A DNA stretch of 64,000 nucleotides from Haplodiscus bocki. Its lineage: Eukaryota. The stretch spans positions 129,394,001-129,458,000 of the forward strand of contig OZ296648.1 in the NCBI GenBank assembly GCA_965655095.1. The letters are read 5' to 3'. This document shows, piece after piece, positions 22,289 through 46,219 of this stretch (positions within the stretch are counted from its first letter, which is position 1; each line of letters starts with the position of its first letter). The position numbers and the translations under genes are program-made. The notes under the pieces were generated by a model. That model was given only the letters and a program-made list of their open reading frames with translations. It had not been told where the DNA came from and did not search any database.

Positions 22289-24858
22289 TGTCGCGTTATA
22301 GCTAACGCTTAAACAGATATATTATATTTCTTAAGAACATGCAGTAAGCTATTAAACAGGAAATGACTAATGTATAACAAAAGAACTGCAGACGGTATTG
22401 ACTAACCTGGGAGCTGCTGGAGGAATGAAAAAACGCGCAGTGTAAAAGAAAGCTGAAGAATTGGAATTGCACAAAGGGGAGGAAAAGGAAAATTTCTAAA
22501 AGCGTTGGAATGTGGTTCAACACGATTGGCTTGTACGGTCACGTGATCGGTGACGTAGTATAGCTTCATTTTGGAGCTGGTACGGGAAAGCGGCTCGATC
22601 ATTACTTACTTACTCGATTACCGGACGGCGGCCATACTTTCCCTTTCTTTTACTCCTTTTCCTTTTTACCTTGCTTTCTCTTCCTTCTTGCTTGGTTAAA
22701 ATTAATCTGAATTCTCTTCCTTCTTTCCTCGGACGGAAATATTCTAAGACACTTCCAAATTTGTCTTAGCCGCAAATTCTGCTTACAGAGTCAACCTACT
22801 CGTTCTCGATTTCTCAACAAATGATCCTATTGGCTCTCGCCAAAACTGAAAAATACGTGAGCATTCGAGTGAAAACACCCAGCGCACAACCATAATATTC
22901 ATTCGCTTGCTACCACCAACTACCCTACTTCCCACATCTCACACCTAACTATTCAGGAAATCTCTTCACTTTTCTTCCACCAGCAAGCCCGCAAACCATC
23001 AGCACCCGAAAATGTTCAAAGACTTTTTCGCCTGCAGAATTGTCTTAGCCGCAACTCACCAATATCCCGGAATTATTCAAAGACTTTCCCAGCAACAGCA
23101 ACCAGCAGCAGCAATCAGCAGCAGCGACCAGCAACAGCAATCAGCAGCAGCGACCAGCAACAGCGATCAGCAGCAGCAACCAGCAGCAGCAACCAACTGC
23201 AGCAATCAGCAGCAGTAACCAGCAGCAGCGATCAACAGCAGCAACCAGCAACAGCGATCAACATCAGCAACCAGCAGCAGCAACCAGAATTCGTCCTAAC
23301 AGCACCACCTATACGATCAACGCCGGCATCTGTTAGTTATCACTACGGTTCCTAGCCTAGCAGAGGATATCCCGCTAGCAGTTGACCTAGGTTTAGCTGC
23401 CCGGTAGTGGAGTGTAATCACCGCACCGAGGCCCATTTTTGTTACTTTTCCCCTTTTCTAAAATCCCTTTTTGTGACTTTTTTCCCTTCTTGCTAAGACT
23501 TAGAACTGATTGGTAAAAATAAAACACATAATAATCACGACCAGTTGACAGTCCTTATAACTTATGTCCTGGTCGCAGAAAAAAGAGAATAAAATTTAAT
23601 TGCTGGTGTCCCGTGGGTCCAGACTGTATCGGCAGGTGACTAAAAACCAGCTTGAAGATTACGACTGGACGAGTGGAACATCCATACGGTGGTCTTTTTT
23701 TATATTAAGGGTAGTGTAAAATGCATTCAAGGTAAAATCCATGTAATTTGATCTCCCTTTCTCTAAACACTGGCCTATCCAGCTTGAGAATAAAACACGG
23801 ACTAGGAGTTTTAACCCGTTAGCCTAGAAATCTAGAGAAAGACGTGGTTTAGCTAAACGTAAAACAAACCGTAAAATGACTGGCTAAAAAAGGCAACTAG
23901 ACAAGACGGAAAATGTACATCACCCGCACTAGTCAAAAAGTAAAATGGTATATGTCTTTGCTCTATTCACAGACTTTCCAGGTTCAACAGCAGCTATTGT
24001 GGATAATGGTCGGCTTTAATTTTAATATTTTATAATTTTATAATTTATTGGAATTAAAATTTGAATAGTCCAAGATTCTAATTGTGATAATACAGTTTAT
24101 AACTCAATTGGACTGAGTTGAACGAGTCCAATTTCTATCTATGATTTATAGTTTCTTAATTGATTTCAAATCAATTATTTCAACTTTTATATTTGAATTT
24201 ATAATTTTAATTCAGACTAAATTAAAGTAGTCTGAATTAGTTGATGTTTATTACATTTTCACTCCTAAAGTGGAATTAACTCAACGTTAATTAATTTTCG
24301 TAACAGTTTGTGGCATCCCCTTTTCAACTCCTCGTTTAATCTTCTGACTTCTCGTTGAATAAAATTTGGTAACTTCACTAAAGTCACGGGTTAAATTTAC
24401 CTAGAATTTGATAAGATTGAAATGTTGAAATTTTATATAAATTGCTATGCTAATGTTGATAGAAATTAAAAGAGAGAAAGTCAAAAAAATATACTGTAAC
24501 TGTATTGCGTAAAATTTAAGACCTTGTGGCAATTTTCCGTGTGCTATCCCGCACTTACAGCCTCCGACAAACCTGAGTAATTTCCTTTTACGTACGTGCA
24601 GTCATATTTCCTTCAGCAATTCAACATACTGAAATACGTTCACTGATAATTTAACTTTCCTTTGTATTATTCTCCACTATTAGCTCACAAGTCCTTGCTT
24701 GAATACAGGCAATCCCTTTGTTCGCACAGTTATGCAAGGCATACTAAATTGAGACTTAAAAAGACTAGCCGTCGCTACAACGCAGCAGTGCTGACTGAGT
24801 CAACCGCTAGCACAACTAAGTAAATATTAGATTTTCAATACACCTACCACGTGCGACA
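22289..24858 (+). repeat. 5' LTR (2570 bp)
   Basis: TG...CA ends with 6-bp inverted termini (TGTCGC/GCGACA); direct repeat of 40454-42972. Confidence 0.95.
23090..23286. repeat. Imperfect CAG/CAA trinucleotide microsatellite in the 5' LTR
   Basis: Run of cagcagca(a/g)c units; a shorter counterpart sits in the 3' LTR. Confidence 0.9.
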
Positions 24859-24861
24859 AAC

Positions 24862-24880
24862 TGGTGCGACCAGTGGGGTT
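24862..24880 (+). promoter_or_regulatory. Primer-binding site, tRNA-Leu-like
   Basis: TGGTGCGACCAGTGGGGTT starts 3 nt after the 5' LTR. Its complement AACCCCAC-TGGTCGC-A-CCA reads as T-loop/T-stem CCCAC, acceptor strand, discriminator A and CCA, as in tRNA-Leu. The isoacceptor identity is inferred. Confidence 0.8.
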
Positions 24881-25430
24881 TTTGAAAGAACTATAATTGT
24901 GAAGTGTCAAATAATCCTTTCTACACTTTCCCAACCTGGTCATTTCTAATTTTCAGCTTAATCCCGATATTGAGTGCTTTCATTTCATTCATTACAGGTG
25001 CTTCATTTGGTATAATATTTGACTGGGTCTATGATTTTAGCCGGAGCATTTTCTACTCCAACCGACAAAGAATCTAACCCCATGAAGTATTTCATCGAGT
25101 TTGAACCCTCCAATTGAGCTTTACCCCTGTTTTCTATGAATCAATTCAATTTTTGAGGAGATGAATCAAGATTTAATAATTTATTTATATTTAACGCTTT
25201 TAATAGTATTGGTTTTATTGCTAACTCCTCCCCTTTTGGCTGCACTTTTCGAGTTTGACGACACTCTGAATAACAGAAACTCTACTGGTTGGATATGAGA
25301 GGAAACATTGTGCTTTTCCTATATCTCCTGCTGATTCTCTTATTATCTCTACTCTTGGGACCCAACTATATTCTTGCAGTAATTGAACTTGGGCAAACCT
25401 TGAACAAGCATTCTGACGAATAACTGATTA

Positions 25431-25787
25431 ATGGCTCTGGAACTTGGAAAGGATCCTAACCACCACTGGTATTTCTTTGAATTCAACGAATTGAAACCTA
25501 TTTTTCTTTTCTGCCCGTGGACGTTAGAAACCACAACTGAACAATTGAAAGTGATAATAACGAGGATTGATTTCACTCTCAAAAGACAGTTTCGACTCCG
25601 ATTACAAGTTTATCCTGAAGAAGAACCCCTATTCAGTAATTTCATTACATTGACGAGATTCCACGAGCATTTTGCCTCAGCACTCGCCGCTATTCAACAT
25701 TATTACAATTTTCCTGAACTTGGGTTTTCCGAATTGGATCTAATAGTTATCAAATCACTCCTAACTGACCCAGTGGTGAACCAATAG
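25431..25787 (+). CDS. Accessory ORF A1 (118 aa), unknown function, paralog of A2/A3
   Basis: ATG-initiated open frame between PBS and gag. It shares the pattern CPWT...IIT..F...V(Y/H)P....S..I...H....FPE with the next two ORFs. Confidence 0.7.
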   Translation: MALELGKDPNHHWYFFEFNELKPIFLFCPWTLETTTEQLKVIITRIDFTLKRQFRLRLQVYPEEEPLFSNFITLTRFHEHFASALAAIQHYYNFPELGFSELDLIVIKSLLTDPVVNQ

Positions 25788-25830
25788 ATAACCTCAATAG
25801 TACACTATATTAAATTCTTGTTACAATCTG

Positions 25831-26184
25831 ATGCCCCAAAAAATTGAGAGTTCGATAACGCATTTGGACGAGCTACCCGACGAAGAGTGCAAACATATTC
25901 CACTAAATTGCATCTGGCCTATCACCCCCCAAGACACGAATCTAACGGTCATCATAAACTGTTTAAAATGGACCTTCAGTTTTGAACTTTGTGTACGAGT
26001 AACAGCCTATCCATTGGGAACACCAAGCATTTCTAAGCGAATAGACATAGACGATCATCATCCTCTGCTTAGATCGTTAACCGATGCACTCCATTTATAC
26101 CAAGCTTTCCCCTAACCTCATTTAATTTCCCATCAACTCGAAAACTTGGAAGATCTAATGGAATATCTGCATTTCAAATTCTGA
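25831..26184 (+). pseudogene. Accessory ORF A2 with one nonsense codon, paralog of A1/A3
   Basis: MPQKIE...CKHIPLNCIW...WTF...VTAYP...ISKRIDIDDHH. TAA at 26113-26115 replaces the Glu of A3 'PEPHL', and the frame continues PHLISHQLENLEDLM to TGA at 26184. Confidence 0.8.
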
Positions 26185-26192
26185 AAAATTAA

Positions 26193-26534
26193 ATGCCACA
26201 AAAAAATGAGGACCTTCTAACAAATTGGGATAATATCGAAAAAGAATGCCAACATGTTCCACTGACTTGTCCGTGGACCATTACTTGCGAAGGCGGAACC
26301 CTAGCATTCATCATTACGAGTTTGGAATGGACTTTCAACTATGGCTTTTGGATAAGTGTGACTGCCCATCCAAAAGAAAACCCAAATATTTCGAAACAAA
26401 TAAACATAGACAAACATCACTCTTTACTTGAATCTCTATCAGAGGCGCTAAACGATAACGTGAAACTTCCTGAACCCCATTTGAACTCCCACCAACTTCA
26501 TATTCTTGGAGAATTACTAGATTTCTTCTTCTGA
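26193..26534 (+). CDS. Accessory ORF A3 (113 aa), paralog of A1/A2
   Basis: MPQKNE...CQHVPLTCPW...WTF...VTAHP...ISKQINIDKHH...PEPHLNSHQL aligns end to end with A2. Confidence 0.8.
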   Translation: MPQKNEDLLTNWDNIEKECQHVPLTCPWTITCEGGTLAFIITSLEWTFNYGFWISVTAHPKENPNISKQINIDKHHSLLESLSEALNDNVKLPEPHLNSHQLHILGELLDFFF

Positions 26535-26553
26535 GAAGATATAAACCCCTAAA

Positions 26554-27965
26554 TTGGCCAATGCTCATCTAGCTTATCCAGACTTGGCTCTGGACAAATT
26601 TCCTGGCACAGACCCAGAACAGGATGCCGAAGCATTCATCCGCTTGATAGAGTGCAAGATTAATTTTGCTCTCGGAACCGAACCAGACGAAGCTGACGAC
26701 GCACATGTTATCTATCTTTTCAGAAAGAAGGCTCTATTTTCCTCATTGCTTAGAAGACCAGCAGCTTAATGGTAAGGGAGCACTATCCAAGATGCAATGA
26801 CTTGGAATGAAGTCCGAACACTGTTCATAACCAGATTTTCAGACAGAGGGAAGAAATTTAGACACAGAATGGAAGTTGAACATTGTATACGAGCTGATTG
26901 AGAGGAGATTCGGAACTTTCTCCAACGAATAAAGAAAACAGTGGAAAATGGCTGGCCCGACGATATGGCTGGAGTTGTAGCAGCTGAACAGGCCGCTGAA
27001 CGCACCGCACAAGCTCGCCAGAGAAGACAAAGTTACATCGATTACACACTAAAGGGACTTAGACCAAGATACCTTCAACGAAAAAGCTGAAGAATACTTG
27101 ATGGAACACCCAAATGCAATTTGGAATGATTTTTCAATACACTTAGTTAACAAAGATGAATCTTATCAAGTCTCTACTAGCTTCCTAAATGACGAAGAAC
27201 AAAACAAAGCTCAAAAGGCCTCTTTGGCACAAGAACTAAAAACCTACCAATTGAGCTGAAGAAACACAGAGTAAACGCTTTAAGAGGGAAACCAGAAACC
27301 TATTGAACCTAACCAGAAAGGAAGACAGAATGCCACACGGTTTTGCGGACATTGTAAAACCAAAGGTCACACTCCTACTTTTTGCAGAAAAAAGATATGA
27401 GATGAAGAAGTCAAGAAGTTGCAGAATGAAGCCACAGCCGAGAAAAAAGGTTACGTTCACCCAAGATTACAACAAGAGACGAGGACCCTCCCACAGATCG
27501 GGGAATGGGACTAGACGGAACGATGATATTGGGGCTATGATGTGAACCCCACGATCATTTACTACAGGAAAATTCCGGCCAAGTAATCAGAGTTCCAGCA
27601 GACCTTTCGAACGAAGAGACTAGCTGAATAACAACAGTGATCGATATAAAGACTACAGAGCGAGATCACAGTATCAGTCAGACCAAGACCAATCCACGAA
27701 GTGGGGAAGTAACGATAACTATTCACGATCGCCTTCAACCTCACGACGAGAGTCCTCATTGACAGAGTTCCGCAGACAACCCTGATCAAATTCGCTTAAC
27801 CCTTCAGTGTTTAACTGGTTTGGAAAGCGAGACCCGAGCGACAATATATAATACGATAAGAAGTTCCCAACTTACAAAGACGGAAACGAGCCAAACGTGG
27901 TTCGATTCACTACAACAGGCGATGAAATTAAAGAACTATCGGGACAATGCCCTATAAATTACTAA
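26554..27965 (+). pseudogene. gag: gag (disrupted by stops and frameshifts)
   Basis: Capsid-like segments (LDKFPGTDPEQDAEAFI, TWNEVRTLFITRFSD, EEIRNFLQRIKK) and a CX2CX4HX4C knuckle CGHCKTKGHTPTFC at 27344-27385. Ends at TAA 27963-27965. Confidence 0.88.
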
Positions 27966-30900
27966 GGTCTCCGAGTTCAGCTACTAATTAGTCCAAGAAA
28001 TCAAGACTCAGCTTCAATTTTTTCTACTTCGCCACCGGAGACACTCAAAAAGATAGTGGCTTAGAAATTGACTTCATGCTAGATGCTGGAGCTTCTAGCT
28101 CAATCATAAACTATCGAACCTTTTGGGAAATCTGCCAAACCCAACATCCAATCACGGTCAAAAGAAGCACTACACAAACAAGGACTTATTCTGGTCAAGT
28201 TATACCTATGATTGGTTTTGCAACATTAACATTAAGTTACGACCCACATGGACAATTTTTTTCCCTCTAACCGTCTGGAAAACCGAAATGAAACCTCAGA
28301 ACCTTCTAGGCATGGACTTCTGTCAGAAGCAAGTATCTGGCTTTCATTTTGATTTATCTAGAATTGCACTTAAAGAGCCATCAGAAACTGTGTGTTATGG
28401 AAGCCTCCATCAGAATAAATTGTATCCTTTCATTTCGCAAAACCTAAGAATACGAACTCTGCATGCAATGCACATTGCAGCCAAGAGCGCAAGATGCTGG
28501 AAATATTCTCCTGAAGATCCTCACGCTCATTTTCCTCCTGGATCCACTTTTCACCCAAATCGCAATGCTTTCGCTACTGGACTATCCTTTGTCAACGTGC
28601 TATGTACTCAACCAGAATCAAAGCTACCTATACTAATAGAAAAAAACAAGAATCACCAAGTTATTTGCCTAAAAGCCGAATTGGCTTTTCATCCCTAGAT
28701 GCCTCCGACAAAGATGAACCAAAATATCAAATACGAGATCTTTATGAGCTGACAAAATCAATCCTCTCAACACATCAACAGTACAACGATTGTTTCCTAC
28801 TACTTTCTACAATTTCTTCCCAGTTACCCGACGAATTCTTGCAAATAGTCTATGGTAACGAAAATTCGATTCTTGAACAGCCCAATTCGATCGGACATTG
28901 TATCACCGCAGATGCTCAGATGAGTAAAGGGTTTGCGCCATTCTTATCAGAAAGAGTTCCGCGGTTAAGGAGAACATGTAGACGAGCCAACCTTCTTAAA
29001 GACCAAGTATTCCCCTTCTGGGTTTTTTCTTCAAGTCGACACATCTATAACCTTGTGACAAAGGAGAATAATTCGGATAAACCTTACCTGCAAACTCTCG
29101 TTACAACATTACAAAATATGCAAGCACACGTTACAATGCACGGAGTTTCAACAATTGCCATACCAAAGATTGGATGTGGTCTTGACCAGATGAACTGGCA
29201 GGATGTAGTCAAACTCCTACGAAATATCTTTGCGTATTCAGATTTACAAATCGTGGTTTATTCATTGGGGGAACACGCAATTCATGCTATGTCAGCTGAG
29301 GGAGATCCGGAGTTCTATGCCAAAAATCAAATAGACCGATATAGCGAAGAATTTCATATGAACGAAAGAGAATCGGAAACCAATTCTATCAGTGACGCTA
29401 AGTCCTGTCAACCAGATTGCGACGAACAATTTCCCATTTTACGCCCGAAAGAGCAAAACGAAGCTCTTATGGAGCACTATCTTCAATACCAGCCTAAAAA
29501 GTTAATTGATTACTTTAAACAATTTGATTTTCAGAACTCAGACGAAACGGATTACCAAATGACTCTTCTCATTGATATGCTAATCGACTCGAAGGTTGTG
29601 TATTCCCTCCACAAGTTCGATGTTGGGAAAACCCCGGCAGAAATTTCATGTTACATTGAAACCGAATGTGGAGTTGAAACGTCAACAAGCGAGTAATGTT
29701 CCGCTACACTTGAAAGTCAAACTTGAGAAACTACTAACACAACCTAAGGACGCCGATATCTTTCGAGAAATGGGCGATGACGGCGAAATGAACTAGTGAT
29801 TGATGCTCATTACCTGAAATCAGTAACTGACCTCACAAACTACTCTTGGCCGTTAGAACCAGTTCAGATGATTATGACCAGAGTGAACGGAAAGTTCTTC
29901 TCAGTCAGTGACTTGTCCTGTGCCTACCATCAGGTACCCCTTAGCTTCGAAACACAGAAATTGACAAGCTTCATCATCGGCGAAAGACAATTTACTTCCA
30001 CCCGAGGATTTTACGGTCTGTGTGGCCTACCAAATTTCTTCAGTCGCTTAATGACGATTCATTTCGACCCACTGATCAAGAAAAAACAGGCAGTTATCTA
30101 CATTGATGGCACCATCATGCAATCGCAAACCAGAGGTGAGATGTCCACCATCATCAATGAGTATCACACCCTTCTGCGGAAGGCTGGCTTAAAAGCTGCC
30201 CCAGACAAGACGTTCTTCTTTCTGAGAAAAGTAAAGTTCCTGGGACACGTTATTTCACCAGATGGGATTCAACCAATAGCAAAACGCGTAGACGCCTTAC
30301 GGAACCTCAAGTCACCCCAGAGTAAGCGACATGTTATGAAGGTCTTGGGATGTCTTGGTTTCTACAGCTGCTACATTATGAACTTACACGTTGATAGTCA
30401 GCCTTTGTATGACTTAATTAAAGATTCTACCCTATTCCACTCGACTGAAGAACATGAAAAATTGTTTAACTCCATTAAGGAACGAATTCACAGAGAAACA
30501 ATTCTAGCAATTCCTTCTACTGATTACCCGTTTCATGTTCACGTGGACTCTTCAAATGTTGGTACAGGTTGTATTCTTATCCAACTAATCCCTGAGGGAA
30601 AGAGAATTATCTCGTTCAATTCGCGTGTACTTGACAAAGCAGAACAAGAAATGTCCACTCTTCATCGAGAACTATGTGGAATCGTATCAGCTCTCCAGAC
30701 ATACGAACACTATATTATTGGATCACCATTTCCCATCTATCTCTATTCTGATCAAAAACCAATTCTTTATTTATGGGGAGGCAAAGAACAACTATCACAT
30801 TGCTTTTTCCGATATCAGGTGATCATTGCAAAATTCCAAAACTTGAAGATCACTTGGACGCCTGGCTCCAACTTAGCCTTTCCGGATATACTCAGCAGAA

Positions 30901-33389
30901 ATGTCACGATCGAGGAATATCAGACGCACCAATTGCAACACAAACGTATTTCGCGTGACATTGGGTTCTTTGACGAACATGCCACTCCGGCCACATACCA
31001 AAATCAACATGAAGACAACCCTAATGATACCTGCAACGACTTCTACCCAATAAAGTACAAACGTGGCAAGGAAGGCAAAATTATGAGATTACAAAACGAC
31101 GGCGAGGACTTTACCGTCAGTAGCAGGCTTGACAAATTTCCAATCACCTCAATCCAACAGGCTTCAGACTGTTTCCAGACGGGAAGATTTATCAATCAAT
31201 TTACACAAATATGTGGGCGAGAGACCCAATCAAATGCATCCGTCAAAACATCTAACACTGAGTATAGTTCAATCACCTCTTTTAGCCCGTCCGAAGATGA
31301 TACGGCAGACTCGACGAGCCCCGGCGATGACTCAAACCTCGTCAGTACAGACTCTGAAGATGACAACATTGTATGTGATATCAGTATTCAAGCTGACCAA
31401 GCCCGACTCTGTCAAGCCAAACAAGCTCACGACGTGGTGCTCGGGAAAACAGATGCTTCGCTAGTCAAGAAATTCCTAACACCTTCTCATGCTCCTCATC
31501 TGGAAACCAAGGCATTAATCCAGAAACTTCACGAAGTTGCGAAGACAGCAGATATTGATGTATCAACCATTCTTGCAGATAAAATGAATGACCAGTACTT
31601 GGTACTGTACATTCTTGGATTCGTAAAAACACTCCTCCCGATATTAAATCACCAGAGATACAAAAGTCTAAAGGTCTTTTACGATATTGCCACGAATTCA
31701 ACAAACTTCTCATCGAAGAAGGTCAGCTCCTTTGCTATAATGAACCGTCAGACAAGCTAGAAGAGCAAAATCTCCGTTTTTGTCTCCCTTTATCCCTATT
31801 CCTTGCATGCTTCCGACTGGGACACTACAACGAAACGGGTGGACACATGGCAGCAACCAAAACCTCTGCCAATGCCAAGAGTTTTTACTCTTGGCCTCGA
31901 ATGTTTGATTGGATGTGTGCTTTGACAGCCGATTGCCTTACCTAAACAGAACAACAAACCTAAACCGAAGCATCGAAACCAAGTTGCACTCGAAGAATGG
32001 CAAAACGAATCCGTTCCTTTCCGCACTGTACACATCGATTACAAGGGACCCATTCACCCGACTAGTGCTAGTAACGTCCATTGTCTTTTAATCGTTGATG
32101 CACTTTCTCGATTTTTGATGGTCTGCCCAGTACGTAATACAACAGCTCTAGCAACCATTACAGCTGTTGAAAAGTGGACCTTTTCTTTTGGAATCTCACA
32201 ATCAATCAACCACGACCGAGGTACTGTTTTCATCAATACAGAGTTCATCAACTGGACCAAAGAACTTGGAATTACTCTATGACTTCGTACAGCTTATTCA
32301 CCCTGGACAAATGGTGAAATTGGAACCCAGAACCAGCATATTGCTCGATACTGGAGAAACTTTCTCAATGATGCCGGAAATAACTGGTCGTCACTAGCAC
32401 CGAAGATTGTATTCGCCCACAATTCAAGCGTCAACAACACAACTGGGAAAACCTCATATGAAATTGTCTTTGGGACCAAACCACAAATACCTATGTCACT
32501 CAAGCTGGGACTTTATCGGAATAAACACAAACTTTGCTGTTCTAAGTTTTGTAAGGACCCCCTTTCTCAATCTCATGGTGAGAACAGCTTGAAAAACAAA
32601 TTGTTGGACAACCTACTTCAACCGCAATTATCACAAGCTCTTTTAGAAAGAGAACGAACCTTTAAACGAATTTATTCCTCAAACTTCGAACGATGCCGAG
32701 AACAGACCGAGCAATCACACGCTTATCGCAATCGTTTCAAGTTGAAACACCACCTTGAGATAGGACAGAAAGTACTTTACGAAAATCACAAACAAGATCT
32801 CACACGAAGCCAAAAATTTCAACAGCGAAGACTCGGACCCTTCACCGTTACCAAGCGCATCACCAATACCCTCTATCAAATTCAGGACGATAAAGACCCT
32901 ACAGTTATCAAAACTGTTCATCGAAACCACCTTGTCGAAAACTATCCTAAAGAAAGATCTCTACCCGCAATGATAGAGGAATACGTACCTTTTAGTCATC
33001 AGGATTATAACTTGTACGAGCGTTTCATGGAACAAAGCACCGAGGATCTAAATAACCCAAACACAACAGAAGATCATGTCACCTTCCAATTCCCAATTCA
33101 ACCGTTACGATCTCTTTCGTCCATAAACAAGCCAAAACGATCGAGTATGCATAGTAACGATTCAGGAATTACTTCCACATTTGTTTCTTCTTGCACCCCT
33201 GTGCTATCATCTGCAACTATTATGGAAACGTCGACCCCCTATTCATCTTCTTCTCAACAAGCACAAACTGCTCAATTGTCAGCCCGGGAACATCTTAGCC
33301 CGATTCGACAATTTATTCGTAACAGTGCCACACGCATGGCTAGAAATAGCATTGAATCGCGCTCTAAGGGGCCGAAATACAACCGCTGA
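27962..33389 (+). pseudogene. pol: pol polyprotein: protease - macrodomain - RT - RNase H - spacer - integrase (disrupted)
   Basis: Protease LDAGAS...LLGMDF. RT DLSCAYHQ, FYGLCGLP, YIDG (30099-30110, decayed YIDD) and VKFLGHVI, with an apparent deletion near 29795. RNase H VDSSNVGTG, RELCGIV, SDQKP, PDILSR. Integrase GH..GGH..W..C, HIDYKGP, HDRGTVF, SPWTNG, GPFTV...VHRNHL. Confidence 0.95.
28842..29261 (+). other. TARG1/OARD1 (C6orf130)-type macrodomain embedded in pol
   Basis: SIGHCITADAQMSKGFA, IYNLVTK, KP..L, IAIPKIGCGLDQMNWQDV and IVVY match the TARG1 motifs SLAHCISED.RMG.GIA, IYYLITK and MPRIGCGLDRLQW..V. The domain is open and in frame. Confidence 0.9.
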
Positions 33390-33619
33390 CAGCCCAACTA
33401 CCACGATCCACAATTATTATTTCAAACCCGCACTCGACAGGGCTATAAACCCTGATCCCCTTTACACCATTGCCACATTATTTTCTACGCGAGATTATTG
33501 CTTTTTTTGATTCCCAATTACATTGAACAAGATGGCTACAATCCTTCAACGACGCCCCACAGTCCTTTTGTAGCCATATTCTATTCTTATTCTTATCTTT
33601 TCAATCTTTTACCAAATTA

Positions 33620-34305
33620 TCGCAAAAAAACCAAAACGATTTTTATTTGTTGTGCAATTCCAAAGAAGAAAGCCGTACAGTAAACTACGGGACATGGCAT
33701 ATAAAAAGCCGCCGAGAGCTAAAAGGCCCCCGACCACCGTTATAGCCAAGCGACTTACTCAATTTCGAGGAAGCCGCCCAACTTCGCCCACAACCGTATT
33801 TTTGCTGCTTTTTCGGCGGCCGACCAGCCTTCAAAATACTGTCTCAATAAACTTTTGTTCAGACTGGTCAACCTGAAATCACCGGCACTATAAGCCAACA
33901 TTTGATCAAACGCACGGCTGCAGGCTGCAAGAATTTAACTTCCCACTGTCGACCGTGGAAATGCTGCAGGAAAGCCCAGAAATTCCTTGACATCATGGGC
34001 GCCTCCACCACATAACTTTCTTCGTTTATTTGGGCCCTCGTCTCTACGGCCCAGTTTTTCAGTTCAAGGACATCAGCCTTATTAAAATAATTGAGGAAGT
34101 TTGTCCCGTCGTCTGACAATTCCCAGATGGGGGACGAATTGCCGACGGGAATCGGCGCAGGATGAACGGGAGAAGGAGATTCTGGCTGCGGCGGAGGAGA
34201 CGCCGGGAATTCATCAGTATCTACATTTACGTTAATGTGTAAAAACCCAGCGCCCTCTTCAGAATCGGAACTTTCCCCCTAAAAGGATTCATTGTCGCTG
34301 TCCAT
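33620..34305 (-). pseudogene. Decayed antisense accessory ORF inside the element
   Basis: The minus strand from ATG at 34305 reads MDSDNESF*GESSDSEEG...PASPPPQPESPSP. After frameshifts it continues WELSDDGTNFLNYFNKADVLELKNWAVE... and FRLTSLNKSLLRQYFEGWSAAEKAAKIRLWAKLGGFLE. TTTTGCAG|G sits directly before the ATG. Confidence 0.5.
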
Positions 34306-34789
34306 CCTGCAAAATTTTTACCTTAGCCTTTGGAACCTACGACCCCCCCGCTCTTAACGCGACGCCTTTATCCTATTCAGAACAACGTTGCTTCCTCCTG
34401 CCAACAGCTCAATGATACGAAATCAAAGCGTTTCCGACAAGAGGTAGGACTACATTAGTCCCGAACCCAAAAACAGTGCTCAAGGACTCAAGGATTCTCC
34501 CACAGTTGTTGATTAGAATTTTGTCTTACACTTACCAACGCCTATTTTACGCTTTCACCCCCGGAAGGCCCTGCAGTGACGAGCACAGCAGAACGAGGAA
34601 ATGAAGAGGATGGCACCAAAGTTTTGTTCGTTTTACATAAATTATTTGGTTTTTTTAATTAATGTTACGAAAAACCTAATTTCTTAAAACTCCTGAAGTT
34701 TAGATAGTACATAGTTACCTTATATTTGTAGTAAATGCCTAATTTGTACATCGTTTGCATTGAAATAACTGAAGAGTACATTCTCAGAT

Positions 34790-35023
34790 TTGCTATGGAA
34801 GATGTATGTCAAAAATGACGAAGAATTAAAGTCAATAAAAAGAATCGAGTTGAAATCCGACGCAACAACGATCCTCGTTCACACTATAACAGAAGAGGGA
34901 CAAGAAGAAGAATACAAGTGTTTTTCTGACTCTCCTAATTATTGCCATCTCCGCTGTCTATTGTCTGCAGACATCTACATTATCAGTGATATTATTTGTG
35001 GCAACAAGGGGCATATTTTTTAA
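34790..35023 (+). CDS. Accessory ORF B1, unknown function, paralog of B2
   Basis: Open frame (first ATG at 34802); aligns with B2 using a single gap. Confidence 0.55.
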   Translation: MLWKMYVKNDEELKSIKRIELKSDATTILVHTITEEGQEEEYKCFSDSPNYCHLRCLLSADIYIISDIICGNKGHIF

Positions 35024-35245
35024 TTGACACTCATACTCCTCCGAATTGACAATCAATTTCAGTGTATTGCGGGCTTAACGTTCATCACAGGAACGAAAGA
35101 CTTCATGGTAACAACCCAATCTACTAACAACGATCAGATAACAACCTTTATTTGCTCACCCGAATCAGCTCATTATCCTCTCATTGAAGCTATACTCAAG
35201 AACCCTCCCCCGAACCACATTAAAAGACAGAACGGAAAATGTTAA
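35024..35245 (+). CDS. Accessory ORF B2, unknown function, paralog of B1
   Basis: Directly abuts B1. Shared pattern D-x5-I-x13-V-x-T...(Y/F)xCxx(D/E)Sx(N/H)Yxx(L/I)xx(L/I)L. No ATG start. Confidence 0.5.
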   Translation: MTLILLRIDNQFQCIAGLTFITGTKDFMVTTQSTNNDQITTFICSPESAHYPLIEAILKNPPPNHIKRQNGKC

Positions 35246-35314
35246 ACGATTGTTTGCAACAGACATTTTTTTCCAGCAGACCTGGAGTGTGGGAACACAG
35301 AACCCATCTTTTGA

Positions 35315-35725
35315 ATGCATCAATTAGGGATATCAATCTCACAGTCACACACAAACACACCACTCAACAGAGTTAATTTCAATTGTAAGTGGACTTCAAC
35401 TAATTTGGGAGAGTGCAAAATCACTAATATTTGTCGGCTACCCAACGGGAGCACCTTACTAGTGCGAATTGACCCGATTGTGAATCTACCCACTGTATTA
35501 GTTATCCCAATACCTGCACGCACAGCAGAATTCGTCAACCTCTTTGTGACCCTCACAATTGCCGGTCGGAACATGGCCACTCCGACTTTGGACACGACGG
35601 AAAACCAAAGTTTGGTAGATCTCTTGGCGTATATGAAAGATAACCTTGGGACCTACACTGGGGTGTCACTGATAAACCTATTGCACGAAACTTGCAATCT
35701 TTCCGACCTGGAACTCAAACGATAG
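35315..35725 (+). CDS. Accessory ORF C (136 aa), unknown function
   Basis: ATG-initiated open frame with globular-protein-like composition, between pol and env. Confidence 0.5.
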   Translation: MHQLGISISQSHTNTPLNRVNFNCKWTSTNLGECKITNICRLPNGSTLLVRIDPIVNLPTVLVIPIPARTAEFVNLFVTLTIAGRNMATPTLDTTENQSLVDLLAYMKDNLGTYTGVSLINLLHETCNLSDLELKR

Positions 35726-36176
35726 ACGAGGAAGGTAGGTGAGTTGCTCAAAACCCCTACGAAGTCTACAAATCAATCAATCTACTTCACCAATAAAAAA
35801 ACCTCTGATGGTTCGACGTAACGGCCAACTGGGAACTACAAATCATCAAGACCCAGATAGTTGGACGTGCGAGCCAATTGGGAACTACAATCACCTATTA
35901 CCTATGGTGGAGGTAAGGTAAATTTTAATTTTGGCACCTCTTTGCGACACTGGTTTTAGTCCGGCGCACTTTTTGGTAATACCGGTTTTAGTCCGCCACC
36001 CCTTTACAAAAATCTCCACGTAGTTATTTAGAATAGTGTAGCGACTCTATAAATATAGTGCTACCGCTTCGGTGTTAGTGCCTACGAAGTAGCCGGTAAA
36101 ATATACTACGACTGTTCCTTTTCTTTTGGTAGTTGTGATGAAAAATTTCACTCTACCCTTCCCATTTGCTAAAGCA

Positions 36177-38341
36177 ATGCATGTAAAAAACCAGGTTTTG
36201 TTCTTCATTATTTTAGCCAGCTTCATAAGTGGCAAGCTCGAAAACTCAGATTTGCACAACATAGCCTGCCACCTCAAAGTGACACATGACTGTAGAGACA
36301 TGACAGAGAATAACCTCTACGCTTTAAACTAAGTTTCCAAATGCAACATTGCTCCCGAGAACCTAGAAGCCAGCAGTGCAAAATTTACGATGTACACAAA
36401 ACATTTTCGACAAGAAATCAACGCAGCAGTTTGTGGAGTCAATAATCAGAGTGGAGAATGGCACTGTGGCTCTGGAGACAATTCAAGCACGGACGCCCAT
36501 CATACAGGAGGAATAACAACAGACTTAACCGTTACAGCATCTCAATGGAGAACCTTGGCGAGAGGAGGTTCAATCACTTTAAAAGATGAGACACTCGAGT
36601 TCAAGAAAGGAGTATAAACAACGGTAGTTAAACACACAGATTGTGATGACGATGGAGCGGACCTCAGCGACAAATACAGAAATGAATGCAACTCAATTGG
36701 ATGGGTAAATCGCAAAACATTTGAATGCCATGTATAAGACGTCGTGCTTAAAGTACGTACTAAGAATGGGAAAGTTATGAGCAAAGACGGACTACAATTA
36801 ACGTTCCCTTTGGGACAACTTAGATGCGATGCTGCCTCATTCGACCCTTATGCATACCCATGGGACGCCCCTGACAACTGCGTATTAGCTATTCAACAGA
36901 AAAAAGACGTTAACATGATCAAACAAGAAAAAACAACTAGTATATTGTCAGTGGACGAAACAACACCAGTCAGTATCTGTTCGAAGTAAAAACGAAAACC
37001 GAAGTTTTCTGTAGCAAGCCAGTACAAGTATACCCAACCAACTACGATTCATTACACGTGGTTATCGTTTTTGGCGGATTCGATCTAGTTTCTAGGAACA
37101 AAATGGGATTCTCAGGAGGAACACAACACTTACAATACTACCAGCCTTCAGTTTCATCTGGCGGCAGGCTATTCGTACACAAACCTGAGTCACCCCATAC
37201 AGATAATCCTAACTCAGAAACGCCTCATTACCTTAACCTAGACTACGAACTCCATCACGGAACAAAACTGGATTATCTGTTCTTCGAAAGCTCAAAGATG
37301 CTTGAAGGCTCCGAGATACATCTTCTAAAGAATTTATGCGAACAAGAAAGAACTCAAATTTTGACTACTCGGTTGCTTTCAATGGAAAACTTACGTTTAG
37401 CTGGTTATATGCTAACTGGGAATCGCTCCATGTTCCTCAGTACCGATGGCAGCCTCGCTTTGTTATATCACTGCCCTCTGATGCGTTCTCCACCACAGGT
37501 GATGAACCAATGTTATAATAAATTTCCTATATTCTACAAAAATGCAATCCTCTTCGTCGACCCAATCACTCGACAAACATACCCAGATGCTCAAGTTCAA
37601 AATTGTTCTGACAGGATAAGGAACCTCTTTCAATTCGACAAGGAAGATGAGAACTCGTAGTTCACTATTACACCCACTCTAGAACACAGGAAACGACCAG
37701 CAAAATTTGGACCAAAAGATGTAACCCCTGTATACAGAAGAGCTTTTGGTGGAGCAGGAGATGCTGGAATCTACACACGAGCACAGTTATCTGATTTCTG
37801 GGACAAAATCCTTATCAGCGCTGCTTCAAGGAAAGCTTTGCAAAAATTTTCAAGAGAACTCATTGTCCTCAACACAGCAATTCATGGACCAGAACAATTT
37901 TCTTATTATGCCCCAAGAACGGATTTCTATGTGGACAACATGATTTCCCCCAGTTACTTCAAGAATCAGTTCATGGACACGTTCGGATCTGTTGCTTATG
38001 TTTTGGAACTTTTTGGAACATATTTCTCTTGCTTTCTGTGTATCAAACCCATCGTTGATCTTATAGTCATGATTTTGCGACACATGGAAATTAACCGTCT
38101 TACTGGTGCGTCACTTGGATTTGGCCAGACACTACTGAGCGTTTCTTACAACTTATTTTTAACGTCTATTCCAACGTCAATGTTCAACCCCCAAGCTCCC
38201 TTTTTGCAAGCGTTGGAACCTGAACCAACGCCCACAAGAATAGAAGACGAGACTAGAGATCCAGCAGATGAAGATAAGAAAAAGCAAGAGCATCTTTGTC
38301 CAACTGTTCATTGCCCCACTACGGCTCGTTCCCCTGTTTGA
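36177..38341 (+). pseudogene. env: env-like glycoprotein related to Chuviridae glycoprotein (class III fusogen-like); 4 stops and 1 frameshift
   Basis: Signal peptide VLFFIILASFISG. Cys-rich ectodomain motifs HDC, WHCGSGDNSS, LRCD...YPW...DNC, TKLDYLF, LCEQER, HCP...QCYNKFPI...FVDPITR...NC and AGIYTRAQL. C-terminal TM segment VAYVLELFGTYFSCFLCIKPIVDLIVMIL. About 720 codons when the fragments are joined. Confidence 0.82.
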
Positions 38342-38442
38342 TTAGAATAATATGAGCGTTATCCTTGATGGCTTTTCCAATAAATCATTAATTTCATTTT
38401 TTAAAAAATCTTTTCTAGAATTCAGACGACCAACCACTAGCT

Positions 38443-39054
38443 TTGCTGGAACACGACGAAATCGACGCGCTGCTCAACGGAATTGACTGGCACCAACCCT
38501 TATCTCCACTTGATTTAAATTTGCCAAAGGAAACAGATAATATTACCCTTCTTTCTTCTTCATCTCCTATCTCTCCAGTTGTTTTGCCGAATCAGCCACC
38601 AAACCCGTTAATCGACAAATTCTTCCAACCCTTAACAAATACCCCGATCCAATTTACAGATCACCCTGCGACCTCACGGCAAGTGTCACGAGTCAAAATG
38701 TTATTGCCTTCACTGCGTAGTTCCAAAGCTCATTCTAATAAAACCCAATCGGAGGAATCACAATCTAATCCTTCTTCGTCGAGACGACTCCGCTCTAATT
38801 CAAAAGCTCTGGGAACATCGACTCAAGACGCTCGAGCATCTCTTTCACGACCAAGTCGATTTCAGCGAAATCAGCAAATTTCCAGACAGAAGCTGAGAGA
38901 AAGTCGTTATCAGCGTTGCAAATCTGTTCGAAGGCCTCGATACAACACCTATTTACACTACCAGCTAACTAACGCATTTTCTTCTTGGGAAATCGTATTT
39001 TGGGATTATAAAAGACAGGAGTATACCATTCAGAACTCTGTTTTATCATCATAG
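38443..39054 (+). CDS. Accessory ORF D (203 aa), Pro/Ser-rich then Arg-rich, unknown function; C-terminus probably truncated
   Basis: Long open frame between env and the TRAF gene; non-ATG start. Confidence 0.5.
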   Translation: MLEHDEIDALLNGIDWHQPLSPLDLNLPKETDNITLLSSSSPISPVVLPNQPPNPLIDKFFQPLTNTPIQFTDHPATSRQVSRVKMLLPSLRSSKAHSNKTQSEESQSNPSSSRRLRSNSKALGTSTQDARASLSRPSRFQRNQQISRQKLRESRYQRCKSVRRPRYNTYLHYQLTNAFSSWEIVFWDYKRQEYTIQNSVLSS

Positions 39055-39173
39055 AGACTTGTGGTACCCCTGAGAGCTATCGAAGTACAGCTCGTCGATT
39101 GACACTGAGTCCACACGCACCCATATTCAAGCCGACAAACTGATCACGATTATTTACAATATATCGTTCTCAG

Positions 39174-40400
39174 TTGCTTACAGAAAAGGATGCATCTACT
39201 TCACAAGATAATATTGATCTTACTTTTACGACCAAATGTCCTAAAACTTCTCCGGATCTCAATAGCCCTACAGTATCACAGCAACTGCATCTATTAACCA
39301 CTCAAGTCAACCAACTTAGAATAAACTCTGAACAAGCACTGGAAAGAACAAAGCCCCTAATCCGAACCTTTCCGTTAGCTAATATCAAGCATTTCCAGTA
39401 TCTTCACGCAGTTCAACATCAAGTAGCTCAGTTCTTCGTAGATCTTAACACCGAGAAAAGCGAACGCCTTAAGCTACGCACAACTATTTGCCAACTTGAA
39501 GATGAGCTAACCCAATTGTGTCGACAAGTAAATGAACCATCATCTTCTTCACTTCCTGTTTCCTTTACAGTCAACCCACCGAGCTCTGCTGCTTTTCAAG
39601 ACTCTGGTGCCCTAGACAATATCCAAATATCGAGGCCTAGGGTCACAATTACTTCAAAAAGAACATCGAGCACTACGTCTCGATCTCGGCTAATTGAATC
39701 ACCATAAGCTCCCCCATCAACTCAAACAATATCTGGACCTTCTTTAGATCTAGAAACCCGAGTCCGACAATTGGAAGAAGAAATTACCAAGGCAAGGGAT
39801 GGTCGCGAAACGATTGCATCCATTTACCGACCTCAATTCGACTTTCTTGATGATAGAATTCGAGCCTTGGATTCTGGAGGCACAGACACTATCTTGTGTA
39901 AATTAACTTCATTGAAATTGGTCTTCGAAACCGCCAAATCTTCTGCTTGGCTGGACAATGCTGCCCAACACCCCAGTACTCATTATAAGAGCTCAGTGTA
40001 CCGCACACACCCTTACGGCTATAATTTCTTTGTTCAGTTCTTCCCATACGGTCTCGACTCTGCCGCTGGAAATCACGCTTCAATTATGTTCGTCTTAATT
40101 CCCGGCGATTACGATGGTTTACTAACGTGCCCGTTCCCCAAAACGATTCAACTCTCGGTCCGCGATCAACTCGACCCCCAAAATGCGTGGACTATTGCCT
40201 TCGCACCCTCCGAGAAGATATCCTTTCGAACGCCTACCAGAGAACCATTGCCTACCCTGATGAACTTCAACTTCTTCCCAAACAGCAAGATGTTCAGCAA
40301 AACTCAAAACTTGCTTTTAAAGGATGCATTTTATGTGGAGATAAAATTCACCGACCTACCCAGCCGTGAAGTCGCCACACCTTCCTCATTTAAACCATGA
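39174..40400 (+). pseudogene. Coiled-coil + TRAF-C (MATH) domain protein with no RING or zinc fingers; one internal stop
   Basis: ORFs 39174-39707 and 39771-40400 are in the same frame, split by one TAA. Heptads are visible (LRTTICQLEDELTQL, LETRVRQLEEEI). The MATH domain at 39885-40349 has YRTHPYGY, GNHASIMFVLIPGDYDGLLTCPF, LSVRDQ, SFRTP and DAFYVEI, matching TRAF motifs FYT..YGY, GTHLSLF.V...G..D.LL.WPF, L.L.DQ, SF.RP and D.IFI. Confidence 0.9.
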
Positions 40401-40453
40401 TGCTTTTTATAGAACCCCCCTTTCATTTTTCCATCCCTGTAACCCCGGTGAGT

Positions 40454-42972
40454 TGTCGCGTTATAGCTAACGCTTAAACAGATATATTATACTTCTTAAG
40501 AACGTGCAGTAAGCTATTAAACAGGAAATGACTAATGTTTAACAAGAGAACTGCAGACGGTATTGACTAACATGAGAGCTGCTGGAGGAATAAACTAACG
40601 CGCAGTGAAAAGAAAGCTGAAGAATTGGAATTGCACAAAGGGAAAGAAAAGGAAAAGTTCTAAAAGCGTTGGAATGTGGTTCAACACGATTGGCTTGTAC
40701 GGTCACGGTGACGTAGTATAGCCTCATTTTGGAGCTGGTACGGGAAAGCGGCTCGATCATTACTTACTTACTCGCTTACCGGACGGCGGCCATACTTGTT
40801 TCCTTTTATTTTACTCCCTTTACTTTTTACCTTGCTTTCTCTTCCTTCTTGCTTGGTTAAAATTAATCTGAATTCTCTTGCTTCTTTCCTCGGACGGAAA
40901 TATTCTAAGACAACTCCAAATTTGTCTTAGCCGCAAATTCTGCTTACAGAGCCAACCTACTCGCTCTCGAGTTCTCACCAAATGATCCTATTGGCTCTCG
41001 CCAAAACTGAAAGAATACGTGACCATTCGAGTATAAACACCCAGCGCACAACCATTATATTCATTCGCTTGCTACCAACAACTACTTACTTCATCGAGGC
41101 GAAACTCTCCTACCCACAGCCCTCACCTAAATATTCAGTAAATTCTTCACTTTTCTTCCACCAGCAAGGCCGCAAATCATCAGCACCCGAAAATATTTAA
41201 AAACTTTTTCGCCTGCAGAATTGTCTTCGCCGCAAATCACCAATATCCCGGAATTTTTCAAAGACTTTCCGAGCAACAGCAACGAGCAGCAGCAACCAAC
41301 AGCAGCAATCAGCAGCAGCGACCAGCAGCAGCAATTAGCAACAGCGACCAGCAACAGCAATCAGCAGCAGCGACCAGCAACAGCGATCAGCAGCAGCAAC
41401 CAGAATTCGTCCTACAAGCACCACCTATACGATCAACGCCGGCATCTGTTAGTTATCACTACGGTTCCTAGCCTAGCAGAGGATATCCCGCTAGCAGTTG
41501 ACCTAGGTTTAGCTGCCCGGTAGCGGAGTGTAATCACCGCACCGAGGCCCATTTTTGTTACTTTTCCCCTTTTCTAAAATCCCTTTTTGTGACTTTTTTC
41601 CCTTCTTGCTAAGACTTAGAACTGATTGGTAAAAATAAAACACATAATAATCACGACCAGTTGACAGTCCTTATAACTTATGTCCTGGTCGCAGAAAAAA
41701 GAGAATAAAATTTAATTGCTGGTGTCCCGTGGGTCCAGACTGTATCGGCAGGTGACTAAAAACCAGCTTGAAGATTACGACTGGACGAGTGGAACATCCA
41801 TACGGTGATCTTTTTTTATATTAAGGGTAGTGTAAAATGCATTCAAGGTAAAATCCATGTAATTTGATCTCCCTTTCTCTAAACACTGGCCTATCCAGCT
41901 TGAGAATAAAACACGGACTAGGACTTTTAACCCGTTAGCCTAGAAAACTAGAGAAAGACGTGGTTTAGCTAAATGTAAAACAAACCGTAAAATGACTGGC
42001 TAAAAAAGGCAACTAGACAAGACGGAAAATGTACATCACCCGCACTAGTCAAAAAGTAAAATGGTATATGTCTTTGCTCTATTCACAGACTTTCCAGGTT
42101 CAACAGCAGCTATTGTGGATAATGGTCGGCTTTAATTTTAATATTTTATAATTCTATAATTTATTGGAATTAAAATTTGAATAGTCCAAGATTCTAATTG
42201 TGATAATACAGTTTATAACTCAATTGGACTGAGTTGAACGAGTCCAATTTCTATCTATGATTTATAGTTTCTTAATTGATTTCAAATCAATTATTTCAAC
42301 TTTTATATTTGAATTTATAATTTTAATTCAGACTAAATTAAAGTAGTCTGAATTAGTTGATGTTTATTACATTTTCACTCCTAAAGTGGAATTAACTCAA
42401 CGTTAATTAATTTTCGTAACAGTTTGTGGCATCCCCTTTTCAACTCCTCGTTTAATCTTCTGACTTCTCGTTGAATAAAATTTGGTAACTTCACTAAAGT
42501 CACGGGTTAAATTTACCTAGAATTTGATAAGATTGAAATGTTGAAATTTTATATAAATTGCTATGCTAATGTTGATAGAAATTAAAAGAGAGAAAGTCAA
42601 AAAAATATACTGTAACTGTATTGCGTAAAATTTAAGACCTTGTGGCAATTTTCCGTGTGCTATCCCGCACTTACAGCCTCCGACAAACCTGAGTAATTTC
42701 CTTTTACGTACGTGCAGTCATATTTCCTTCAGCAATTCAACATACTGAAATACGTTCACTGATAATTTAACTTTCCTTTGTATTATTCTCCACTATTAGC
42801 TCACAAGTCCTTGCTTGAATACAGGCAATCCCTTTGTTCGCACGGTTCAGCAAGGCATACTATTTAGACTTATAAAGAATAACCGTCGCTACAACGCAGC
42901 AGTGCTGACTGAGTCAGCTGCCAGCACAACTAAGTAAATAATATATTTTCAATACCCCTACCACGTGCGACA
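40454..42972 (+). repeat. 3' LTR (2519 bp)
   Basis: Direct repeat of 22289-24858, followed by the GTGG TSD. Confidence 0.95.
41272..41402. repeat. Imperfect CAG/CAA microsatellite in the 3' LTR
   Basis: Homologous to 23090-23286 but shorter. Confidence 0.9.
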
Positions 42973-45844: not shown

Positions 45845-46076
45845 TGTCATACAGTGAACTCCGTTAATACGGTCATGCAACCGTACTGAATTAGAAGAGA
45901 CAGAAACTAAACTTGGAAACTTGTTTATGTACAAAGTTGTAAGCAACATATTGCGCTTTATTCGGAATACCGTAAACTGATATATCATCATCACCGATTA
46001 CCGAAGAAATCTTATATGTTACAATTAGAAATTAGAAACACAATTGCTTTTTTATTTACTTAGCCAGAATAGAACA
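45845..46076 (+). repeat. 5' LTR of second element
   Basis: Diverged direct repeat of 50561-50778. Confidence 0.9.
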
Positions 46077-46094
46077 TGACGCAGTAAGCAAGAA
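46077..46094 (+). promoter_or_regulatory. Decayed PBS, tRNA-Ser-like
   Basis: TGACGCAGTAAGCAAGAA lies directly after the LTR and resembles TGGCGCAGTGAGCAGGAT, mostly through G>A changes. Confidence 0.55.
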
Positions 46095-46219
46095 TTTTTA
46101 TTGTCAATTAACCGAAACTTACCGTACACTTCGAACCAATTATCAGACCGAAAGAAAATGACCGAAGGCAGAATACGAATACCATGCCTGGACAAGAGAA
46201 GAATAGATTTTCACTCTAT

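Follow-up and report, generated by a model that had tools for sequence, protein, structure and literature searches.

Structure of the element

The window analysed here is a stretch of 64,000 nucleotides from Haplodiscus bocki (assembly GCA_965655095.1, contig OZ296648.1, forward-strand positions 129,394,001 to 129,458,000). It contains a long terminal repeat (LTR) retroelement of 20.7 kb with an internal region of 15.6 kb. This element is a decayed copy of one family, here called family A. The lineage to which it belongs is large, comprises several families and consists of Ty3/Gypsy (Metaviridae-type) elements that carry env and whose genome layout resembles that of complex retroviruses. Its features are listed in Table 1. 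A preliminary description of the window had proposed an intact frame of LTRs, target site duplication (TSD) and primer binding site (PBS), and this frame was recovered: the LTRs are 96.9% identical over 2,494 aligned bases (Kimura two-parameter distance 0.032), the TSD comprises four bases and the PBS starts 3 nt past the 5′ LTR. The TG...CA ends, a TSD in the range of 4-6 bp and a tRNA primer site are those expected of Metaviridae. The examined copies of two sister families, B and C, are also flanked by 4-bp TSDs, the family B copy starting with TA. A short G-rich tract, which is not a classical purine tract, lies 5′ of the 3′ LTR in all three families. The 13-bp tandem repeat of the LTRs (Table 1; second array at 41272-41403) varied strongly in length among copies and yields long Q/S-rich open frames without clear coding signal.

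The primer, which we take to be a tRNA of the elongator Met type, was assigned from the CAT anticodon read in extended primer copies and from the general shape of tRNAs. At two loci (L034:1480-1530 and L035:1480-1530) the PBS is prolonged to a length of about 45 nt. This stretch is the complement of the 3′ half of a tRNA with the anticodon CAT, CCA included, and in L034 the sequence beyond it returns into the LTR end. Reverse transcriptase (RT) had read through its tRNA primer at these loci, leaving a direct trace of tRNA-primed reverse transcription. A tRNA gene was not called in either L034 or L035, and the read-through copies served to identify the primer. The extended-primer pattern had nine matches in the genome, two of which were inspected, and a control pattern had two. 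When the LTR was used as query against the 1.50-Gb assembly, 6,226 first-look candidates were obtained, which are not copy numbers; 40 were scored, with identities of up to about 87% over long stretches. The host appears to be a long-branch animal, possibly an acoel: one of its endoplasmin exons shows the same distance (60-64% identity) to proteins of cnidarians, molluscs, echinoderms and vertebrates, and 71-74% identity to two further proteins.

Table 1. Features of the family A element in the window, with counts of nonsynonymous/synonymous (N/S) variants shared by at least two family A copies or private to one
Feature	Position	Strand	Shared N/S	Private N/S	P	Remarks
TSD GTGG, 4 bp	left 22285-22288; right 42973-42976	+				
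5′ LTR, TG...CA ends, 2570 bp	22289-24858	+				13-bp tandem repeat at 23089-23287
PBS, complementary to 3′ end of CAT-anticodon (presumably elongator Met-type) tRNA	24862-24875	+				also in families B and C
preA, small CPW family ORF	25431-25787	+	9/21	80/36	1.3e-4	homology detected
preB, CPW paralogue, shortened by stop in window copy	25831-26115	+	9/14	65/25	3.7e-3	53% to family B preC
preC, CPW paralogue, 113 aa	26193-26534	+	21/26	84/36	2.2e-3	65% to family B, 35% to family C
gag (broken), CCHC knuckle	26554-27965	+				Pfam support in sister family, which aligns to window
pol (broken): protease, ~120-aa segment, macrodomain, RT, RNase H, linker, integrase with SH3-type C-terminus	27992-33389	+				
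Macrodomain, TARG1/OARD1 type, within pol between protease and RT	28880-29270	+	4/37		8e-8	frame continuous with the rest of pol in families B and C
Antisense gene (broken in window copy), acidic Pro-rich N-terminus, then conserved domain	33758-34305	-	50/117	134/62	1.6e-13	34-41% to family B
midA, small ORF	34802-35023	+	10/14	56/26	0.018	resembles midB by eye only
midB, small ORF	35024-35242	+	6/12	61/22	1.7e-3	27% to family B, E 5e-10
midC, distant CPW paralogue, 136 aa	35315-35725	+	21/12	87/38	0.32	45% to family B; E 7e-7 to family C CPW
env (broken), predicted class III fusogen of chu-/xinmovirus glycoprotein type	36138-38341	+				PF24664 and fold searches of family B model
postA, disordered N-terminus, basic stretch, conserved C-terminal domain	38419-39102	+	33/45	162/73	2.8e-5	39% over 72 aa, families B vs C
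TRAF gene without RING: PAM2-like N-terminal motif, coiled-coil-like segments, TRAF-C/MATH; split by stop in window copy	39099-40400	+	N-part 30/44; C-part 19/34	N-part 118/71; C-part 170/61	N-part 1.1e-3; C-part 3.5e-7	
3′ LTR, TG...CA ends, 2519 bp	40454-42972	+				

Gag, Pol and the macrodomain

A Pfam search with 24 frames of the window detected the domains Macro, RT, RNase H, H2C2, rve, integrase C-terminal domain, Monjiviricetes_fusion and TRAF-MATH. The domains lie where the preliminary description had placed them, and gag was recognised by way of the sister-family alignment (Table 1). The order within pol is protease, RT, RNase H and integrase, as required for Metaviridae (Ty3/Gypsy), and RT passes directly into a Gypsy-type RNase H; a retroviral RT with a tether before RNase H, as in Retroviridae, was not found here. 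When the RT-RNase H region was compared with solved structures, Ty3 RT was the best match (E 2.6e-34), followed by foamy (2.4e-22) and gammaretroviral (1.2e-14) enzymes. Since its RT is closest to that of Ty3, the element classifies by sequence as Metaviridae-type and not as a member of the Retroviridae, and the label 'retrovirus' given to it at first was too strong. In a search of 1.84 billion proteins, the RT-RNase H region was about 28% identical to most Gypsy-type proteins. Nearer relatives from outside, with 39-48% identity (P0330-P0333, P0338; metagenome or run assemblies), belong to a wider, divergent RT clade and carry no macrodomain.

In family B, pol lies in the -1 frame relative to gag. 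A slippery-type heptamer was seen by eye 5′ of the gag stop in five of seven other family A copies and in family C. The copy in the window is dead, as had been stated: gag, pol, env, the antisense gene, postA and the TRAF gene all contain stops or frame changes, and the damage to the RT motif is private to this copy, being present in none of the eight other copies that cover the site.

The macrodomain of the family B Pol matched human TARG1 with an E value of 8.7e-27. The catalytic positions, presumably K84 and D125 in the numbering of TARG1/OARD1, are kept among the other family A copies covering the site (Lys in 7/7, Asp in 7/7). The domain can be assigned to the TARG1/OARD1 class with its catalytic positions retained, and its hydrolase activity is putative. 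The segment of about 120 aa between protease and macrodomain had no match in the search and is dUTPase-like by position only. An unrelated Gypsy pol (P0390; 32% RT identity) was also found to carry a macrodomain, at the C-terminus of pol, indicating that macrodomain capture has recurred.

Env

The family B env matched PF24664 with 130 bits. Its AlphaFold model had a mean pLDDT of 44 overall and was fair at residues 70-310. A Foldseek search of the PDB with this model gave 91 matches at E<=0.001, and every listed row was a class III fusogen (herpes gB, GP64, thogotovirus). The top ten rows obtained with VIA were likewise class III, at modest Z values of 4.7-6.2 and with high rmsd. In a fold search of a viral library, the best named matches were chu- and xinmovirus glycoproteins (E ~1e-15), well above herpes gB (3e-8). 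A C-terminal transmembrane segment was located near residue 620-645 in families B and C, and an N-terminal hydrophobic stretch was above threshold only in C. Searches of env revealed no furin-type site, no PDB sequence match (single sequence or profile) and no relative in viral contigs. Env is accordingly predicted to be a class III fusogen of RNA-virus type, the latter in agreement with the proposal made from the window sequence; the selection test below shows it to be under strong constraint.

Accessory genes

Nine extra ORFs accompany gag, pol and env. Three of them precede gag, another four, including an antisense one, separate pol from env, and the remaining two follow env. Their approximate number, their occurrence on both strands and their three positions had been correctly described, with corrections to the inventory: the macrodomain is part of pol, two frames after env form one TRAF gene, and neither the frame at 33574-33876 (+ strand) nor the Q-rich one at 22873 in the LTR gave a coding signal in the shared-versus-private N/S test described below. 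A second short LTR frame gave a p value of 0.033 in this test.

The working label CPW was coined for a family of small paralogous genes. The single CPW gene of family C matches both preC (E 1e-21) and midC (E 7e-7), indicating that preA, preB, preC and midC are one family; the preliminary description had spoken of duplicated small accessory genes. Their number is four in family A, two (perhaps three) in B and one in C. A model of the CPW protein (pLDDT 75) shows four strands and three helices; Foldseek gave no match at E<=0.001, the best Z was 4.8 (with PH-like rows among others), and no fold was assigned. Protein searches with CPW matched ENA proteins only, and preC and the C-terminus of postA had no usable match in the ESM Atlas. 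An extra 140-aa ORF past pol in family B (L022:876-1343) has a weak CPW-like start (pairwise E 0.005) and no family A match. The postA frame of families A and B lacks a Met and has a pyrimidine-rich AG just upstream; postA is possibly a spliced exon.

The 187-aa and 230-aa frames 3′ of env belong to a single TRAF gene, which is continuous over 462 aa in copy L004. The best PDB matches of its product were TRAF proteins, and Pfam reported no RING family for the 462-, 503- or 252-aa versions. The macrodomain and the RING-less TRAF had been identified correctly. TRAF-C is the sole part of the gene kept in all three families. At its start, families A and B carry a PAM2-like peptide, which has at most one change in 10/10 copies and which we take, by eye, to match the LNPxAxxFxP-like motif that binds MLLE. 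In the genome, only a partial, HECT-linked MLLE exon was found.

Two loci among the top genome matches (L037 and L038) contain TRAF-like host exons that are bounded by AG/GT and have an identical end point; neither env nor postA was matched in the 3 kb of sequence covered there. Over 337 aa, the TRAF protein of family A is 28% identical to the host exon (E 4e-38), with an alignment reaching past the MATH domain. Where the host exon ends, the element gene reads on with no intron, suggesting that it was acquired from a host mRNA. The host exons and the family A gene also have the N-terminal motif in common, and the exons likely represent the donor family. The genome yielded 2,967 first-look TRAF-MATH candidates. 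Annotators should be aware that TRAF copies borne by elements will inflate counts of host immune genes.

Conservation and selection in other copies

The pol-env interval and the post-env region were used as DNA queries. For either query all 40 scored candidates matched, in nearly every case along most of its length. Ten further family A loci were taken from the post-env matches, so that presence of the post-env region in them is by selection. All ten were colinear with the window at about 74-87% identity, internal deletions aside, and the accessory region is syntenic. The pre-gag region was covered at least partly by nine of them, whereas in the remaining one coverage begins at 34280. LTR pairs of these copies were 86-98% identical (nine pairs).

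In the selection test, variants shared by at least two copies were compared, per codon column, with variants private to one copy, which separates selection during replication from later decay. Eight of the nine accessory ORFs were nominally significant for purifying selection, midC being the exception (Table 1). The RT-RNase H region gave a shared N/S of 12/97 and a private N/S of 221/123. In env, shared N/S was 4/23, 12/67 and 13/65 in three larger segments and 9/11 in the first segment (p 0.095). The ratios of 0.05-0.10 in three of the four env segments, compared with 0.07 in RT-RNase H, indicate that env is as constrained as RT. Three core-gene windows spanning frameshifts of the window copy gave no signal, as expected. 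When five alternative frames were scored for each ORF, only the opposite-strand frame sharing third positions also scored; 3-11 of its columns are stops in most copies, compared with 0 (midA: 1) in the annotated frames. A repeat search of the window revealed no long direct or inverted repeats in the internal region, nor TSD-like repeats, that would mark nested insertions. The accessory genes are thus integral and not nested, and were mostly under purifying selection while the family multiplied.

Several internal breakpoints are common to unlinked copies (window 36497 to ~39970 in L031 and L032; 25106 to 25400 in L010 and L032; start at 34280 in L017 and L033), indicating that deleted derivatives themselves multiplied. 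Short LTR-to-TRAF copies were considered as retroposed spliced RNAs. This was rejected, as eight deletion junctions lacked GT...AG and the shared junction has a short repeat. TRAF or antisense matches were also found about 16-18.7 kb or about 7.8 kb apart (C8:16.57-16.58 Mb, C7:51.45-51.47 Mb, C1:162.18-162.22 Mb and others), a spacing that suggests head-to-tail tandem elements sharing LTRs.

Sister families

A search with env gave 159 proteins; the 120 listed are ENA entries and form several groups 46-65% apart. The family B env (P0035) is 55% identical to that of family A. It had 61 scored matches at 98-100% identity, 56 of them without a stop, top-scoring matches being biased to intact copies. 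The one family B copy examined is about 20 kb long with identical LTRs of 2.46 kb and has the order preC, gag, pol, extra 140-aa ORF, antisense gene, midB, midC, env, postA and TRAF; all ORFs except the extra one align to the window. Of 150 scored matches to the antisense frame of this family (86-100% identity), 148 were open, and length changes kept the reading frame. The one family C copy examined has identical LTRs of 1.67 kb and contains gag, pol, a different short antisense ORF, a midB-like ORF (by eye), one CPW gene, env, postA and a 252-aa TRAF. The identical LTRs indicate that both copies are recent insertions.

The gene order gag, pol, small genes, env, postA and TRAF is kept in families B and C. 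Across families, RT-RNase H is 77-87% and env about 54-56% identical, and the LTRs of A and B no longer align. One env (P0075) has no close copy in assembly GCA_965655095.1 (best match 70%), and three metagenome contigs (L026-L028) contain env fragments at 55-91% identity, indicating that the lineage extends beyond the assembly.

Comparison with known elements

A close precedent is Burro (GYPSM1) of planarians, a giant Gypsy element with thousands of copies, MATH_TRAF_C and a mononegavirus-like env, for which interference with host apoptosis and ubiquitin systems was proposed (Grohme 2018 and Jurka 2007, reviewed in PMC6431247). Both elements have MATH_TRAF_C, an env matching mononegavirus fusion glycoproteins, an extra segment between protease and RT, and accessory ORFs. 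Of the architecture set out in the preliminary description, giant size, TRAF and env are anticipated by Burro, whereas the layout differs. According to the review on Burro, most parts are joined in one polyprotein of about 4,900 aa, in which env follows gag and precedes pol. Domains of the BIR, BCL2, ankyrin and ubiquitin-like types are present as well; a TARG1 macrodomain, an antisense gene and CPW paralogues, as found here, are not named there (PMC6431247). In contrast, env of the window element is a separate ORF 3′ of pol and TRAF is the last ORF, and this arrangement of env and TRAF past pol in all three families led us to reject membership in Burro.

Complex retroviruses, such as HTLV-1 with its antisense HBZ, foamy viruses and HIV, carry accessory genes around env. 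The window element resembles them in accessory genes around env, an antisense gene and probable spliced exons; this is an analogy only, its RT being closer to Ty3 than to any retrovirus. A Gypsy lineage has reached the gene content of complex retroviruses independently, with an antisense gene, probable spliced exons and duplicating accessory genes. Anakin is a BEL/Pao element. Like other retroelements with a chuvirus glycoprotein, it combines a Jingchuvirales-type env with an LTR element (PMC7642597, PMC10084718, PMC12440569); these elements are from mosquitoes and other arthropods, and the accessible parts of two of the reports note no comparable accessory set (PMC7642597, PMC10084718).

Env of the gB type is widespread and ancient in Gypsy elements (PMC13524379). 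The 'ancient errantiviruses' with HSV/gB-type env described there share with the window element a Ty3/Gypsy gag-pol-env arrangement, a class III env, multiple copies and recent activity in non-insect animals. The traits of such elements (gag-pol-env, class III env, N-terminal signal, C-terminal transmembrane segment) were found here, the N-terminal stretch being above threshold only in family C. Ancient errantiviruses are, however, described by three ORFs, and in the text and element table as available neither 'macro', 'TRAF' or 'accessory' nor the window primer sequence occurs (PMC13524379). Fish epsilon-like endogenous retroviruses with macro domain ORFs are likewise cases of macrodomain capture by an LTR retroelement; they are Retroviridae with additional ORFs (Basta 2009, cited in PMC4977317), whereas the macrodomain of the window element lies in frame inside a Metaviridae-type pol. 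Capture of TRAF-C and of macrodomains hence recurs in large env-bearing retroelements (Burro, fish endogenous retroviruses). Extra ORFs are also reported from bdelloid elements (PMC5408684). Troyka, given in the available text as having CG...CG termini, a 3-bp TSD and no env (PMC12440569), was rejected, as TG...CA ends, a 4-bp TSD and env are present here.

No description of the family was found in the literature searched, Repbase and subscription journals lying outside its scope. What is new is the arrangement in many ORFs, including an antisense gene, together with the expanding family of small genes; most parts have precedents. The element appears to work like an errantivirus with the gene content of a complex retrovirus and is not classed with Burro.

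Proposed expression and function

A pyrimidine-rich AG was seen by eye upstream of env in 10/11, of postA in 11/11 and of the antisense start in 9/11 family A copies, and similarly for postA and the antisense gene in B. Stop and start codons abut or overlap between midA and midB (9/11), midB and midC (11/11) and postA and TRAF (9/11, also in B and C), again by eye. On the reading considered most probable, a -1 frameshift near the end of gag would give rise to Pol. Splicing would supply the RNAs for env, postA and the antisense gene, and the small genes would be translated by reinitiation where stop and start codons adjoin. Env would pass particles between cells of the animal, most likely from soma to germline as in insect errantiviruses. 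The macrodomain, freed from Pol by the protease, might strip ADP-ribose from element proteins or cDNA. The TRAF protein, derived from a host mRNA, could act as a decoy that fills TRAF docking sites without relaying the ubiquitin signal, and in families A and B it would be tethered to poly(A)-binding protein (PABP) via the PAM2-like motif. The antisense gene and postA may regulate expression or RNA export, and the CPW genes may be an expanding and contracting set of small host-protein binders. The preliminary description had suggested an infectious lineage with an anti-immunity toolkit; infectivity is putative, and counteraction of host defence would be the most likely role of macrodomain and TRAF.

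Several observations weigh against this interpretation of the element and its genes. The PAM2-like motif has no Pfam match and family C lacks it, the env model is of poor quality, with a mean pLDDT of 44, and the splice-site and stop-start patterns were read without a shuffle control. Selection on midC was not significant; after Bonferroni correction for all 29 frames, preB, preC and midA lose significance and midB lies at the limit. By eye, the antisense ORF of family C does not evidently resemble its counterpart in A and B. The RT relatives with 39-48% identity carry no macrodomain, so that the domain is dispensable for replication in the wider clade.

The extras might instead mainly serve the element's own expression, that is export, translation and stability of a polycistronic RNA of about 17 kb, or assembly. 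In that case TRAF-C would trimerise and act as scaffold of a factor that binds PABP, and the macrodomain would be a cofactor of RT. A Rev-like export protein has been described in the accessible text on the Gypsy element Cer1 of C. elegans (PMC10309623). The fusion of the PAM2-like motif to the TRAF gene in A and B, the basic stretch of postA and the stop-start coupling of the small ORFs would fit such a role. However, it is TRAF-C that every one of the three families retains, whereas C has lost the PAM2-like motif, and both TRAF and macrodomains are established in antiviral signalling; we therefore consider this explanation possible and somewhat doubtful.

Host-defence counteraction can be taken further, to an infectious and still active invertebrate lineage of 'complex metaviruses' independent of the Retroviridae. 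Such a lineage would have a dominant-negative, PABP-coupled TRAF decoy and a Pol-borne ADP-ribose eraser that counters restriction of its cDNA by PARP-type factors. The antisense gene would encode a regulator, and genes for host-binding proteins would form a gene accordion; passage from one animal to another may occur as well. As a whole, this extended scheme is tentative and rather unlikely to hold in every part.

A true exogenous virus that passes from animal to animal and endogenises repeatedly might account for the strong constraint on env, the env relatives outside the assembly (P0075, L026-L028) and the many divergent young families. Mass amplification within the genome, mobilised env-deleted derivatives and tandem copies fit a genome-resident element better, and related sequences elsewhere may come from related hosts. 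Retention of env with long vertical descent is also common, according to the accessible text of Chary and Hayashi (PMC13524379), and an exogenous virus is considered unlikely. That the extra ORFs were passively captured or nested and are carried without function is very improbable and largely refuted, since the non-significant midC, the ORFs that differ among families and the mobilised derivatives missing parts of the region are outweighed by the purifying signal, an order conserved across three families, an antisense ORF open in nearly all scored matches (albeit biased to intact copies) and the lack of internal TSDs or terminal repeats.

The very young sister families, whose frames are open in most top-scoring copies, would supply natural genes usable as direct probes of the host pathways (ADP-ribosylation, TRAF signalling, poly(A)-binding protein) that restrain retroelements in a little-studied animal lineage.

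Other repeats in the window

A second, unrelated and decayed LTR element lies at 45845-50780. Its direct repeats are 4.7 kb apart, and fragments resembling RT/RNase H and integrase were read in it by eye. Clusters of minisatellites that have inverted arms, and a pair of direct repeats of 2.64 kb, occur at 10280-11590, 54956-58339 and 15888-18716 and are probably other small repeats.

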